Virus record (IMG/VR): IMGVR_UViG_3300036715_002570
Coordinates: 86,678 to 150,677 of that record
Reading direction: 5' to 3' (one strand)
Length of the DNA: 64,000 nt
DNA from: a virus
Shown: piece after piece, positions 2,942 to 54,721 of the stretch
Position numbering within the stretch: the stretch's first letter is position 1
Layout of the letters: the number at the start of each line of letters is the position of its first letter
Position numbers and translations under genes: made by a program
Notes under the pieces: generated by a model
What the model saw: only the letters and a program-made list of their open reading frames with translations
What the model was told of the DNA's origin: nothing
Database searches by the model: none

Positions 2942-3375
2942 GCCACAAATTTACCGTGCACGTAGAGGGTGCTGACACGGCAGCAAAGAAGGCACTAACA
3001 CACCTGCTAGCCTCATTTCTGGAAGACAGCGTCAAGCACGTAATCGTTCCAGGCGAACGTATGTCAATGCAGAAGATTTTCGGGCAGATGGATCGAATTC
3101 AAGACCATGCTGTGGTTGAATTCGTCACAGATGCTCCCGTGGTGCACACCGTTCAAGCGGTAGTTGCACCTACAACGGTTGCTGGCACTGCTCCTACCTA
3201 CACGGCCGCCACTGTATCTGCACCTGCCACTGTATCCGTTTCCGCAAGTGCTGTTGATGAAGACGGTGACGCGTTGACTCTGCCAAACGTAGCAGAGTTT
3301 CTTCCTCCAACCCCTGCGAAGGCATTACCGCAGCATCCTGCTACTGTGATGGCACGACCAAAGCATCGTTGGTAA
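2938..3375 (+). CDS. hypothetical protein with Ala/Thr/Pro-rich tail
   Basis: ATGA overlap with upstream gene. Confidence 0.65.
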   Translation: MSHKFTVHVEGADTAAKKALTHLLASFLEDSVKHVIVPGERMSMQKIFGQMDRIQDHAVVEFVTDAPVVHTVQAVVAPTTVAGTAPTYTAATVSAPATVSVSASAVDEDGDALTLPNVAEFLPPTPAKALPQHPATVMARPKHRW

Positions 3376-3420
3376 AGTGAAGCCCATGCCTCGTAAATAG
3401 CACGACTATGGAGGGGGCAC

Positions 3421-3546
3421 ATGGAGAGCAATTGGCACAACTGGTTTGCGTGGCGGCCAGTTCGAATGATGGGTGGTAGGATTGTATGGTTCTGCTACGT
3501 ATGGCGCCGTCGAATTCGACAGCAATGGCAATATCACGTTTTCTGA
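3421..3546 (+). CDS. small Trp-rich phage protein (WHNWFAWRPVR family), not in ORF track
   Basis: GGAGG RBS; MESNWHNWFAWRPVRMMGGRIVWFCYVWRRR. Confidence 0.65.
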   Translation: MESNWHNWFAWRPVRMMGGRIVWFCYVWRRRIRQQWQYHVF

Positions 3547-3556
3547 AAGGCCAACG

Positions 3557-3814
3557 ATGGACATGAAGACCACTGGCTACGCAGCAATTGATCTCCAAGA
3601 GTTCCTTGAGATCGTATTGATGTGGCATTGCAGTGGTGATATTCCCATGGACCGCAAGTCAACTGCGGAGTTCATTGAGACGGACACCTTCAGTGAATTT
3701 CTGATGTCCGTTAAGCACTGGGCGCGCAGATTTGGTGTAAAGGTACCAACGACAGCTGAGATCGTCAAGACGCTGTACGCGCTATACAACGATCCTGCGC
3801 GTTGCAGTACATGA
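3557..3814 (+). CDS. hypothetical protein
   Basis: ATG 3557 just after upstream stop. Confidence 0.55.
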   Translation: MDMKTTGYAAIDLQEFLEIVLMWHCSGDIPMDRKSTAEFIETDTFSEFLMSVKHWARRFGVKVPTTAEIVKTLYALYNDPARCST

Positions 3815-3851
3815 CGGTTGCGATATATACTCCGATCTAACAGGAGTTTCT

Positions 3852-50761: not shown

Positions 50762-51142
50762 ATGTTGACGTTCGAGCAGATGCAGCAGATCGTGGGCGAG
50801 ATCACGTACAAGCCGGGTTGGACGATCACACTGTCAACGGATGGCCACCGTCCGTACCTGCAGATCGGGGCGACAACGCTGGATAGCGTTACCCAGGAGA
50901 TAGTTCCGTGGCGAGGTGCGAAAGCATACCTGTCTCCGCATATGTGCCGCCAGGAGGTCGTCAGTGAAGTGTTCCACTTGATCGAGCGGGCAGAGCTGCA
51001 CGAGATGCGGGAATTCTTCCGCTACCGTGGTGCTTCGATATATAACCCGCACCTCGACCCGGATGTGCTCGTTCCGATCGCCAGAAAGATGGCGTCGTTC
51101 AATCTGCGTGACAACGCGATGTCGATGGTTGAAGGAAACTGA
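50762..51142 (+). CDS. conserved phage protein (YKPGW...E.HE.RE.F.Y...YNPH)
   Basis: motif, GGAG RBS. Confidence 0.75.
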   Translation: MLTFEQMQQIVGEITYKPGWTITLSTDGHRPYLQIGATTLDSVTQEIVPWRGAKAYLSPHMCRQEVVSEVFHLIERAELHEMREFFRYRGASIYNPHLDPDVLVPIARKMASFNLRDNAMSMVEGN

Positions 51143-51479: not shown

Positions 51480-51746
51480 ATGACAATTCAATTAGTCGAC
51501 TGGCCGGACGGCGCAACAATCGGCACACTGCAACACCAATTTGGGATCTGTCATCCCGATCTAGACATTCTGGTTGAGATTGATGGCAAGTGCCACAAAC
51601 TGACAGGGATCAAGCAGTGGCGACCACTTGACAACAAGAATGTTGTGCTGTCGTTCACTGTCGAGCCGGAAGGCAAGAAGTTCGAAGAGTGGAAGATGAT
51701 CAGGTCGTCCTCCGCTGTGCCAACTGTACCGGCAGCTGTTGCGTAA
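51480..51746 (+). CDS. hypothetical protein
   Basis: GGAGG RBS. Confidence 0.65.
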   Translation: MTIQLVDWPDGATIGTLQHQFGICHPDLDILVEIDGKCHKLTGIKQWRPLDNKNVVLSFTVEPEGKKFEEWKMIRSSSAVPTVPAAVA

Positions 51747-51797
51747 TAACAGGGTGACCTATACGATATCAGTACTTTGTGTAACTGGTGACGTAAA

Positions 51798-51980
51798 ATG
51801 ACTCCTCTGAAGATTGCCCTTGTTGCTGTGCTGACCACTCTCGCAGTGGTGTGCCTTCTCCCTGCGTTCGTATTTGGCGTTGGAATTCTCGCCACAATCG
51901 GCGCCCTGATCATTCACCTCGCTCCGTATCTTGCTGTCGGATTTGCGGCAGCATACGTGGTGCAAAAGGTGTGCAAATGA
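51798..51980 (+). CDS. small membrane protein
   Basis: hydrophobic. Confidence 0.6.
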   Translation: MTPLKIALVAVLTTLAVVCLLPAFVFGVGILATIGALIIHLAPYLAVGFAAAYVVQKVCK

Positions 51981-52210
51981 AACAACTACTGATCGTGCTC
52001 GGTCAATTCTTTGGTGCAGTTGCAAAGATCGCACTAGCTTGCGTACTCGTCCCAGCGATGGTCGTGCTGGCTGTGATCCTGATCGGGTTGCTACTGTCTG
52101 CTCTTGCTGTTGCATGGGCGGTTGGGGCTCGCCTGACGATCAAGCAGAACAACGTGGTGATCGGCCATCTCCGCTGGTTTACGTTTACACCCGTTAGTCG
52201 GTTGCGTTAA
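51977..52210 (+). CDS. small membrane protein
   Basis: ATGA overlap, hydrophobic. Confidence 0.6.
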   Translation: MKQLLIVLGQFFGAVAKIALACVLVPAMVVLAVILIGLLLSALAVAWAVGARLTIKQNNVVIGHLRWFTFTPVSRLR

Positions 52211-52235
52211 TTAGGGTTTCTCCATAGAATAGATT

Positions 52236-52800
52236 CATCGGTTGAACGAAACGTTGCACGTAAAACTGCGAGGTTGAGTGAAGCAGATCCTCGTGGTTGG
52301 GGTTGCTCTTTGGAAGATAGGTCCTAGCCGATCGGGCCCTTGAAGGTGATCGGTCGCCGACTGACAGATTGTAGTGGCCACTACGTCGTTGGTCTAACCC
52401 CAGAGAAGATGTCGTATCTGGGACTGGTGGAGACTCTGAGAGTATGGGAGCGGGTGCATATCCCGCCTTGCTGTCTTGGTAATATGTCAGGGCATACGGT
52501 CGATTCCGTAGCGTGAGAGGGCCTGGGACTCCACCCACACATATTACTGACACTGCGAGTAGTTTACGCCTTAGGAGAACACATACTCGGACATCCTCTG
52601 ATTGCTAAAGCACGTACGCCCTAGCAATGACGCAGAGATTTATCAACGACGGTACGGTCGTCGGGAAACGCCCAGCACGCCACAAAGGTGCGCCAGATCG
52701 GTGGTAGGGGTTTTGAAAATAGGTGGCGGTGAGCCGAATCCTCACCGTTGCTTCTAAGTTGTTCGCAGATTGCCTAATGGGCAATGTCCGAACAATTTTC
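52236..52800 (+). ncRNA. candidate large structured ncRNA (~560 nt)
   Basis: promoter ttgcgt-N17-tagaat 52202-52230; no credible ORF; many helices, crossing pairings, T-loop-like hairpins. Confidence 0.65.
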
Positions 52801-52823
52801 ATCAACAGCGTGGAGCAAAGGCC

Positions 52824-53063
52824 ATGAAGCGCATCTATCAACTGAACACCACCCCGGTCCAATACTTCGAAACCAAGGAGGCGGCGAAGGTCGCTCGCGG
52901 TGCGAAGGTCCCCGCAAAGGACGACAAGCCGGAGCACTACAAGTTCACCGTGTCGAAGGGCCCGGATCATCCGAAGTTCGGCGAACGTGCGAACGAACGC
53001 ACGCACTCGTACAACAGCCGCTCCGGCGGTCACGACAACGGCTTCCCGGCCCGTCGCAAGTAA
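52824..53063 (+). CDS. small basic protein between candidate RNAs
   Basis: GGAG RBS, strong codon bias, KGPDH motif. Confidence 0.7.
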   Translation: MKRIYQLNTTPVQYFETKEAAKVARGAKVPAKDDKPEHYKFTVSKGPDHPKFGERANERTHSYNSRSGGHDNGFPARRK

Positions 53064-53180
53064 GCGATTTGCTGCTGGTCTCATAATCCAGCAGCAATAC
53101 GTGTGGTGCTACGTATTGCTGCACTGTTTGCCTGGAAACGTCAAAAAGGTGGGGCGGCCAGAATCACAGCCCCATCCTCG

Positions 53181-53332
53181 TCTGTATACGCGAGCAGAGT
53201 TGGATTTGAGCTTCGGTTATCCTGCGTAACGAGCAGGGCGTTAGATAAACGTGGACCTTTCCGGATAAGGGACATGCTGACTGCTGGTGTAAGTGTAACA
53301 CATCGATTCACCAACCTGCTCACGTATACGGA
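53181..53332 (+). ncRNA. candidate ~150-nt structured RNA
   Basis: ~20-bp closing stem 53181-53203/53311-53332 followed by TTTT. Confidence 0.5.
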
Positions 53333-53351
53333 TTTTCACAGGAGAAAAACA

Positions 53352-53525
53352 ATGTTGAAATGGATGTGTGCAGGCGCTGCAATCGGCGCCTTTATTGGTG
53401 GTCTGAGCTGCAGCGCGTTCCTGACGGGCGCACTGATTGGCGCAGGAGTGGTGTTCGGCTTCTACATGCTGTTTGGCATAACCGTGATCGTCGGACTCGT
53501 CAAGCTGTTCAGGGACGGCGTGTGA
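53352..53525 (+). CDS. small membrane protein
   Basis: AGGAG RBS, hydrophobic. Confidence 0.6.
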   Translation: MLKWMCAGAAIGAFIGGLSCSAFLTGALIGAGVVFGFYMLFGITVIVGLVKLFRDGV

Positions 53526-54721
53526 TCATCCCGGCTGTTGAACAACCGTTCATGACCACTATCGCGGGTAGCGTCTCTCTGACGCCGCGCGACGAGTGGG
53601 AAAAGAAGCTGCTGAAGTCCCAACAGACCGGCGTGCCGCTTCGGATCAAGCTCGGGTTCGACCCAACCGCTCCCGACATTCACTTCGGGCACGTCGTCGT
53701 CCTGCAGAAGCTACGGCAACTGCAGGATCTTGGGCATACGGTAATTCTGCTAATCGGTGACTTCACAGCCGCGATTGGCGATCCGTCTGGCCGCAACTCC
53801 ACCCGACCGGTACTGTCTCACCATCAGATTCAACTGAACGCGGAGACGTACTGCGATCAAGCGTGGAAGGTGCTCGACCAATCGAAGACGGAGGTCCGCT
53901 GGAACAGCGAGTGGTGCAACGCGCTTGGTGCACGTGGGCTGGTCGAACTCGCTGCCAAGCACACTGTCGCTCGAATGCTTGAGCGGGACGATTTCGCCAA
54001 GCGGCTGCAGGCTCAAACTCCAATTAGCATCCACGAGTTCCTGTACCCCCTGCTACAAGGCTACGATTCCGTCGCACTCAATGCGGACTTGGAGATCGGT
54101 GGCACAGATCAGACGTTCAACCTGATGGTTGGTCGTCAGCTGCAAGAAGCCTACGGGCTATCTCCGCAGTGCATTCTGACGATGCCGCTGCTGGTCGGGA
54201 CGGACGGCACGCACAAGATGTCGAAGTCGAAGAACAACTACATCGGTGTTGCTACGCCACCCGAACAGATGTTCTCGCAGGTGATGGCAATCAGCGACAA
54301 GCTGATGTGGGATTGGATTCCGCTGCTCAGCGGTAACGGACAGCTGGTCGCGCAAGCCCTTGTTCGTCGTTCTGATGTCAACTGCCGAGACATCAAGGTC
54401 ACCTTTGCAAAAGAACTGGTTACGCGGTTCCATTCCGCAGAACTGGCAGATCGTGCGCATGACGACTTTGTCAACCGTTCTAACGGTGGAATTCCGGCAG
54501 AAGTGCGCGACTTCTATGCATCAGGCGGCGCTCGTCCTGTCACATCCTTGCTAAAGGAATCTGGCCTGTGCCCCTCGATGTCTGAAGCCGGGCGAAAGAT
54601 CGAACAGCGTGGGATCCGCATCGACGGTGTGGTCGAGCAAGACAAAAGGCGCGTGATCGAACCAGGCACCTACGTGATGCAAGTAGGTAAGCGAAATTTC
54701 GCTCGGATCCATCTGTCATAA
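53522..54721 (+). CDS. tyrS: tyrosyl-tRNA synthetase
   Basis: GFDPTAPDIHFGH, YPLLQGYD, GGTDQ.FN, KMSKS, C-terminal S4 domain. Confidence 0.95.
   Translation: MIIPAVEQPFMTTIAGSVSLTPRDEWEKKLLKSQQTGVPLRIKLGFDPTAPDIHFGHVVVLQKLRQLQDLGHTVILLIGDFTAAIGDPSGRNSTRPVLSHHQIQLNAETYCDQAWKVLDQSKTEVRWNSEWCNALGARGLVELAAKHTVARMLERDDFAKRLQAQTPISIHEFLYPLLQGYDSVALNADLEIGGTDQTFNLMVGRQLQEAYGLSPQCILTMPLLVGTDGTHKMSKSKNNYIGVATPPEQMFSQVMAISDKLMWDWIPLLSGNGQLVAQALVRRSDVNCRDIKVTFAKELVTRFHSAELADRAHDDFVNRSNGGIPAEVRDFYASGGARPVTSLLKESGLCPSMSEAGRKIEQRGIRIDGVVEQDKRRVIEPGTYVMQVGKRNFARIHLS

Follow-up and report, generated by a model that had tools for sequence, protein, structure and literature searches.

The gene-free gap at 52211–52823 (613 nt) of the window very probably encodes a genuine RNA fold that is kept by selection and represents a new family. 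The window covers the final 64 kb (64,000 nt) of an IMG/VR phage record of 150.7 kb, whose completeness is estimated at 64%. The preliminary description had proposed a large structured non-coding RNA behind a promoter and outside the known families. This proposal held: two homologous contigs were found, the stems carry compensatory changes and a pseudoknot covaries. The comparison predicts about ten hairpins and one long-range pseudoknot in the core at 52324–52749; this core, not the whole stretch 52236–52800 delimited before, is conserved. The fold is compact and well supported. Its pseudoknot shows compensatory changes of a textbook kind, a tRNA-like module is optional, and the RNA lies in the putative early transcript of translation-investing phages.

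The relatives were reached through the gene neighbourhood. A 126-aa protein encoded 1.1 kb upstream, at 50762–51142, has a homolog, P0123, on the 60-kb Logan contig L007, which is syntenic with the window. L007 carries the 126-aa homolog first, then small membrane ORFs, a gap of 567 nt without genes (3267–3833), an 81-aa homolog of the window's 79-aa gene and later a NUDIX gene. P0128, the nearest relative of P0123, led to contig L085, with a 129-aa gene, a 102-aa gene, a 386-nt gap (874–1259), an 81-aa homolog and the start of a tyrosyl-tRNA synthetase (TyrRS). The proteins neighbouring the gap in L007 and L085 are about 52–70% identical to those of the window where aligned. The flanking genes have 65–74% DNA identity, yet the gap holds blocks of 100% conservation. 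The element is located directly upstream of the 79-aa gene homolog in all three phage contigs. As judged from the alignment, the three gaps are homologous, with structure conserved rather than sequence. The features of the window are as follows.

52202–52230, plus strand: sigma70-type early promoter TTGCGT-N17-TAGAAT, read from the sequence, overlapping the stop of the upstream 77-aa gene
52237–52323, plus strand: putative transcribed 5′ extension; L085 shares its first ~30 nt (GATTCATCGGTTGAACGAA..), the remainder with the cgagg/cctcg hairpin is window-specific
52324–52749, plus strand: RNA core from CUAGCC through H12, homologous to L007:3309–3636 and L085:944–1225
52327–52354, plus strand: hairpin H1, GCCGAUC/GAUCGGU, 7 of 7 pairs in the three sequences
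52371–52384, plus strand: hairpin H2, GUAGU-GGCC-ACUAC, found in the window and in L007 but not in L085; one position differs, U-A against G-C
52399–52422, plus strand: hairpin H3 with the conserved 12-nt loop GAAGAUGUCGUA (52405–52416) and a conserved CUAAC just before it
52440–52588, plus strand: variable tRNA-elbow-like module closed by helix Hx (GAGUAUG/CAUACUC), with T-arm and D-arm-like hairpins
52450–52466, plus strand: hairpin H5 inside the Hx module, 5 bp with a 7-nt loop
52467–52559, plus strand: window-only insertion hairpin (93 nt) inside the Hx module
52562–52580, plus strand: D-arm-like hairpin H8 inside the Hx module
52590–52598, plus strand: 3′ strand of the pseudoknot, GACAUCCUC, pairing with 52405–52413 of the H3 loop; 8 of 9 pairs in each sequence
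52601–52628, plus strand: hairpin H9, AUUGCUA/UAGCAAU, 7–8 bp with compensatory changes, window and L007
52647–52663, plus strand: hairpin H10, CGACG-GUACGGU-CGUCG, with a conserved GGGAA directly 3′
52675–52691, plus strand: H11, GCAC-GCCACAAAG-GUGC, the best-conserved block, with 18 nt unchanged in L007 and one change in L085
52725–52749, plus strand: hairpin H12 with the 7-nt loop CCGAAUC, loop consensus (A/C)CGA..C; the three stems all differ and pairing is kept
52756–52802, plus strand: long imperfect hairpin followed by UUUU, terminator-like, window-specific, from an inverted-repeat search
52803–53063, plus strand: 5′ UTR (CAUCAAC..CGUGGAG, the SD) and gene of the small basic 79-aa protein, ATG at 52824

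Perfectly conserved blocks reach 18 identical nucleotides and comprise CCGAUCGG..GAUCGGU, AGUGGCCACU, CUAAC and GAAGAUGUCGUA, followed by UCGGACAUC, CAAUGAC, GGGAA and AGCACGCCACAAAGGUGC. The stems between them change while pairing. H1 has a C-G to U-A change in L085 and a G.U to A-U change in L007. The H3 stem is CCCAGA/UCUGGG in the window, CUGUUGG/CCAACAG in L007 and CACCAGG/CUUGGUG in L085. These are three unrelated stems of 6–7 bp, with changes on both sides in 5 of 7 pairs, below an almost invariant loop. The stems of Hx, H9, H10 and H12 also differ largely at homologous places: H10 is wholly different, with CUCA/UGAG in L007 and UGACG/CGUCA in L085, and L085 has a 5-bp hairpin at the position of H9. 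For H2, an alternative GCCG/UGGC pairing, proposed by RNAalifold, is also compatible. G.U pairs are found in H1, H3, H8, H9 and H12. They would be A.C mismatches on the other strand, which identifies the plus strand as the RNA.

The covariance model R1 covers the 5′ domain and was built from the window and L007 only. The cores of these two score 170 and 168.8 bits. As an independent check, R1 finds the left-out L085 in 154 kb with 27.6 bits (E 2.9e-6). With the three sequences aligned to R1, 98.6% of the cells in the 5′ domain are paired, compared to 25–47% after sliding the partners by 1–3 columns, and 8 pairs change on both sides, compared to 0–2, values reached by none of 500 shuffles; these counts lean towards structure, since the alignment is fitted to a structure derived from two of its sequences. 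A hand count over all helices, in an alignment likewise fitted to the structure, gave changes on both sides at 28 of 67 positions and 4 broken positions. In two blocks, RNAalifold reported 6 and 10 pairs of which both partners change, and its unconstrained run recovered 39 of 40 curated pairs. A covariance model of the 3′ domain was dropped because MAFFT had placed H10 and H12 out of register. R-scape-grade statistics are impossible with three members only. Homologs in independent genomes, conserved loops and compensatory stem changes thus define a new family, of three members only.

The pseudoknot connects the H3 loop with a segment 55–176 nt downstream among the three sequences. In the window, its 3′ strand lies just 3′ of the variable module. 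The loop pairs as AAGAUGUC with GACAUCUU in L007 and as AAGGUAUC with GAUACCUU in L085. The L085 loop has only two substitutions, A to G and G to A, and the partner strand has the matching changes, U to C and C to U. Since covariation is also seen in the stem of H3, the two pairings should form together, as a long-range pseudoknot. The preliminary description had claimed crossing helices. A crossing helix does exist between 52405–52413 and 52590–52598, and the proposed crossing of 52426/52529 with 52479/52539 found no support.

The complementary segments listed before are all present at the positions given, and about half of the helices are not conserved. Comparison with L007 and L085 supports gccgatcg/tgatcggt (H1). 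gtagtggccactac at 52371 (H2) is supported by the window and L007, not by L085, and gagtatg/catactc (Hx) covaries between the window and L007. The helix cgagg/cctcg is window-specific. The pairs ggtggag/ctccacc and tcggacat/atgtccga, the latter proposed to close a second domain, are window-specific or unsupported. The helix gtaatatgt/acatattac and the hairpin at 52495 fall into the window-only insertion of 93 nt, and the terminator-like hairpin at 52759–52799 is window-only and lacks conservation. The hairpins at 52450 (H5) and 52726 (H12) were confirmed as hairpins by the comparison; their reading as T-loops is good only for H5 of L007. A helix closing the 5′ end with the segment after H11 was rejected, as it was seen in L007 only.

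The Hx module is variable and tRNA-elbow-like. Comparison of the window with L007 shows covariation in Hx and H5, including a C-G to U-A change in H5. In L007, H5 is a canonical T-arm, GUGGG-UUCGAUU-CCCAC. The L007 sequence gave the only sub-threshold Rfam matches, both far below gathering: 15.5 bits to tRNA (RF00005) for the T-arm part, and 22.7 bits (E 0.029) to YrlA at L007:3403–3504. The loop of H5 in the window, UGCAUAU, is not a T-loop. L085 lacks the module and has only a short stem at that position; hence, the module cannot be essential and is optional. A tRNA-like sequence was observed elsewhere in L085, in a second gene-free gap (1668–2085) just upstream of the TyrRS gene. A perfect T-arm (GCUGG-UUCGAAU-CCAGC) is combined there with an acceptor-like pairing of 9 bp between GCGAAGUGG and CCACUUCGC, a D-loop-like GG and an insert of ~60 nt closed by a 9-bp stem. 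ARAGORN and Rfam did not call it, and R1 had a weak match of 10.5 bits at 1845–2058.

The gap is non-coding. As described before, it contains no credible ORF: no frame has an ORF with a positive codon score, compared to +0.05 to +0.27 per codon for real neighbouring genes, and gene callers placed no gene within the gap on contigs identical to the window. A search against Pfam and PHROGs yielded nothing convincing; the best match (E 0.0019) was to a PHROG of unknown function, antisense of the 79-aa gene. The conserved blocks sit in differing reading frames in the window and L007, and the indels are not multiples of three. The conservation is thus not protein-coding. A minus-strand frame across the gap (52194–53084) has a single stop (TAG, 52605–52607) in 204 codons, a value equalled by 16 of 2000 shuffles. 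This open frame is not kept in L007, lacks a coding signature and is probably due to chance.

Taken alone, the sequence of the gap is no more structured than chance. The minimum free energy of the gap had a z-score of −1.70 on the plus strand, with 6 of 100 shuffles as good, and −2.19 on the minus strand. Local folding in 150-nt windows over 52210–52650 gave z-scores between −1.2 and +0.8; only 52660–52720 reached −1.8 to −2.7. By chance, a stretch of 565 nt should hold about ten complements of 7 bp. Paralogs of the element or internal repeats were not detected in the phage genome. From single-sequence evidence alone, a real non-coding RNA would have been a doubtful proposal, its absence being the better guess. 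Single-sequence folding statistics would have missed the element.

The promoter at 52202–52230 was read as described before, TTGCGT-N17-TAGAAT. It is kept in L085 as TTGCAG-N17-TAGAAT, and L007 keeps the −10 element only (TAGAGT). The type TTG..N17..TA(C/G)GAT recurs ~30–60 nt upstream of many small plus-strand ORFs. In a scan for strict consensus promoters, the site was below the threshold. L007 has no 5′ extension and its core starts directly. At the 3′ side, nothing is conserved among the window, L007 and L085 between H12 and the UTR and SD of the 79-aa gene. The terminator-like hairpin at 52756–52802 was not listed by a terminator scan. Its place is taken in L007 by an extra domain of ~150 nt closed by a 12-bp stem. 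L085 lacks such a hairpin and has only 36 nt between H12 and the start codon. This is too little space for a second promoter and places RNA and gene on one transcript there. No U-tract follows H12 in L085 and L007, and a conserved rho-independent terminator was not found at the 3′ end. The RNA may thus be a leader and not free-standing. The distance from H12 to the SD varies between 36, 75 and 190 nt across the three contigs and the peripheral modules vary too, which agrees better with a fold that stands on its own than with a fixed expression platform.

The best explanation, to which we lean modestly, seems to be a stable RNA that acts as RNA and is produced as the 5′ part of the early transcript. 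Host RNA polymerase would start near 52237 early in infection, and the RNA would be the first part of a transcript able to run on into the 79-aa gene. Release may occur by termination, in the window at the 52756–52802 hairpin and U-tract, or by processing. The folded stable RNA could act in trans or as an RNP. The tRNA-elbow-like module may touch tRNA-handling proteins; the phage has 45 tRNAs and its own TyrRS. A stable RNA is favoured by the variable SD spacing and by how large and modular the fold is; a cis-acting leader is favoured by the unvarying place before one gene and by the absence of a conserved terminator. Such a structured leader in the 5′ UTR, riboswitch-like or autoregulatory by protein binding, is the main rival, possible but rather unlikely. 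It would control read-through or translation of the 79-aa gene, an 83-aa ORF and TyrRS, perhaps with a ligand, a tRNA or the encoded basic protein as its binding partner. The position directly upstream of the same gene in three of three phages speaks for it, together with the missing space for a separate promoter in L085 and the lack of a promoter-like site from H12 to the gene in the window. The gene downstream encodes a very basic small protein, and the terminator-like hairpin of the window lies between fold and SD like an attenuator. This hairpin is, however, window-only, and neither the spacing from fold to SD nor its sequence is conserved. A conserved anti-SD or antiterminator alternative was not found in the three sequences. 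With 280–430 nt and ~10 helices, the element is larger than most known cis-regulators, and the gene family works without it in L012, L013 and L080.

Two further readings are highly improbable. The blocks might be protein-binding sites at the DNA level, or the transcript might prime replication, the hairpins being incidental. Origins of phage T4 use a promoter-driven transcript for priming, and a promoter followed by a long non-coding stretch with perfectly conserved blocks of 12–18 nt would agree with such a role. Compensatory changes, G.U wobble pairs and the covarying pseudoknot are signatures of RNA, however. The gap has no obvious AT-rich unwinding tract and no iterons, its GC content appears ordinary for the genome by eye, and a separate repeat-rich candidate origin is located at 27.5–28.8 kb of the window. 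Equally improbable is that the gap is a plain spacer or the cassette of an early gene that has decayed, flanked by promoter and terminator, with its complementarity due to chance. The layout of the early region with its common gaps of 200–300 nt, the insignificant single-sequence fold and the minus frame with one stop in 204 codons (16 of 2000 shuffles) would suit it, as would a 16-codon mini-ORF at 52279 that starts like the neighbouring 77-aa protein. Decay does not explain blocks of 100% conservation next to genes with 65–74% DNA identity, nor indels incompatible with any frame. The open minus frame is lost in L007, and neither a paralog signal nor a convincing Pfam or PHROG match was obtained for the gap.

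To our knowledge, bacteria and phages rarely possess large non-coding RNAs with an intricate fold. GOLLD, ROOL, OLE and raiA each proved structurally surprising. The element belongs to this known kind, large structured phage and bacterial RNAs of unknown function, as a new family. The test with Rfam 15 included GOLLD, ROOL, OLE, raiA, HEARO, RNase P, tmRNA, 6S, group I and II introns, T-box and riboswitches. At the gathering threshold, no match was obtained anywhere in the window. At E values up to 10, nothing relevant appeared in the window at 51900–53400 and in L007:3150–3900, and L085 had nothing at E up to 5. The covariance-model search thus agrees with the initial view that no known family applies. 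ARAGORN found no tRNA or tmRNA in the window, L007 or L085.

The element resembles GOLLD (RF01998), ROOL (RF03087), OLE, raiA and HEARO in its several hundred nucleotides, many helices, pseudoknot and variable peripheral hairpins. Like these, it was found by comparative analysis, has no known function and occurs in a phage or phage-like context near translation genes, here tRNAs and an aminoacyl-tRNA synthetase. Sequence or structure matches to them were not obtained from this element. It has a smaller size than GOLLD, is known from three proteobacterial-type phage contigs only and lies leader-like before a protein gene. GOLLD and ROOL form RNA-only assemblies (PMC12286853). The likeness to YrlA concerns the module, which in the window and L007 has the permuted order of T-arm and then D-arm-like hairpin and is closed by a stem. 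The tRNA-like domain of YrlA has the order T-arm, then D-arm (Chen et al. 2014, PMC4201824). Membership in YrlA (RF02553) was rejected: L007 scored 22.7 bits against a gathering threshold of 69, and the window and L085 had no match. The module is only about a quarter of this RNA and is lacking in L085. A Ro60 gene (Rsr, TROVE; PF05731) was not found in the 150.7-kb record, which is ~64% complete; positive controls matched.

Like T-box RNAs and other large cis-regulatory leaders of translation genes, the element is a long structured RNA before genes, and an aminoacyl-tRNA synthetase belongs to the gene string. Contact with a tRNA elbow could be made by T-loop-like elements, and the terminator-like hairpin of the window precedes a gene. 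However, RF00230 gave no match, and no specifier loop, T-box sequence or antiterminator bulge was recognised. In the window and L085, the TyrRS gene lies at a distance of two genes; in L007, the 8 kb downstream contain none. The expression platform of this RNA is not conserved.

The family is very rare, with three members known, in uncultured, tRNA-rich large phages, and none in an isolated phage. Homolog collection, as outlined in the preliminary description, yielded the two relatives whose stems covary. A blastn search of the region against 50,697 phage records had no match, and scans of viral contigs with TyrRS, the 79-aa protein and rIIA provided no relatives. DNA-motif scans revealed no further member in viral contigs (IMG/VR; 29 and 9 chance matches in two scans), metagenome contigs (JGI; 64 chance matches) or genome contigs (GTDB; 4 matches in unrelated taxa). 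Among these 4, R1 had only a match of 24 nt and 11.4 bits (E 0.12) in L084 and nothing in the others. The other contigs with the 79-aa protein or TyrRS, L003–L006, are 100% identical to the window. The element is absent from L012–L015 with 79-aa homologs and from L008–L011 and L115 with 126-aa homologs. The 90% clusters of all flanking proteins are singletons. No RNA run is listed among those that contain the sequence. One 151-nt DNA fragment from a 2024 freshwater run differs from the window at 52707, 52717 and 52718, all in an unpaired linker. A published screen across IMG/VR set a minimum of three IMG/VR regions (PMC10690425). The motif scans of an IMG/VR subset found only the record of the window, so the element is probably below that bar.

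The 79-aa gene has a codon score of +0.27 per codon. The motif in its 5′ UTR is common to the window, L007, L085 and L080. The protein belongs to a small basic family with 17 remote homologs, counted as cluster representatives in a full HMMER search. Family motifs are MKRLF.., KGPDH, RTHSHN, SGGHGNGFP and a C-terminal K/R tail. Pfam and PHROGs contained no match to the protein, and its AlphaFold model (pLDDT 73) had no PDB fold match with an E value below 4.9. A search with the family alignment added only L080, with no RNA upstream. The homologs on L012, L013 and L080, at 58% identity or less, have no such upstream gap or RNA; a plain promoter and a UTR with a short hairpin precede them. The tie between RNA and protein is thus optional.

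The phage is translation-heavy. The whole record has 45 tRNA genes at 8.6–69 kb, all outside the window, for 20 of 20 amino acids and including tRNA-Tyr(GUA). Its gene content includes rIIA and rIIB, a NadR-like gene and TyrRS, which is 61% identical to enzymes of Comamonadaceae. The rIIA protein is less than 34% identical to that of any isolated phage, which places the phage far from anything cultured. We consider it unlikely that the RNA is a new large phage class whose pseudoknotted core and tRNA-elbow-mimicking module engage the host or phage translation and tRNA machinery. In that case, candidate partners would be RNase P, tRNA-modifying enzymes, TyrRS or tRNA-cleaving defence nucleases, the RNA being a possible decoy for these nucleases, and the RNA would be part of a translation-takeover kit of phages with 45 tRNAs and an own synthetase. 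The RNA offers a defined target of 280–430 nt in three natural variants for probing, cryo-EM and genetics.

The early region of the window has a cassette layout in which gaps of 200–300 nt are common. The gap lies between a 77-aa membrane ORF (51977–52210) and the 79-aa ORF (52824–53063). A hydrophobic 60-aa ORF (51798–51980) overlaps the start of the 77-aa gene by 4 nt. It has a codon score of +0.11 per codon and its own promoter at 51739–51767, was not called by gene callers on contig L004 and is probably a real small membrane protein. The 126-aa protein, of unassigned function, has ~500 homologs with 52–70% identity in phages and in alpha- and betaproteobacterial genomes, some fused to an extension of ~70 aa. 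The longest ORF of TyrRS, 53360–54721 (453 aa), is over-extended: homology starts at residue 81, the called protein P0001 has 399 aa and the true start is near 53522. The start of TyrRS is overlapped by the 83-aa ORF (53274–53525), which is glycine-zipper-like. Right 3′ of the 79-aa gene, hairpins at 53064–53230 fold strongly on the plus strand (z −3.2 to −3.4 in 150-nt windows) and are likely the terminator of the transcription unit of this gene.
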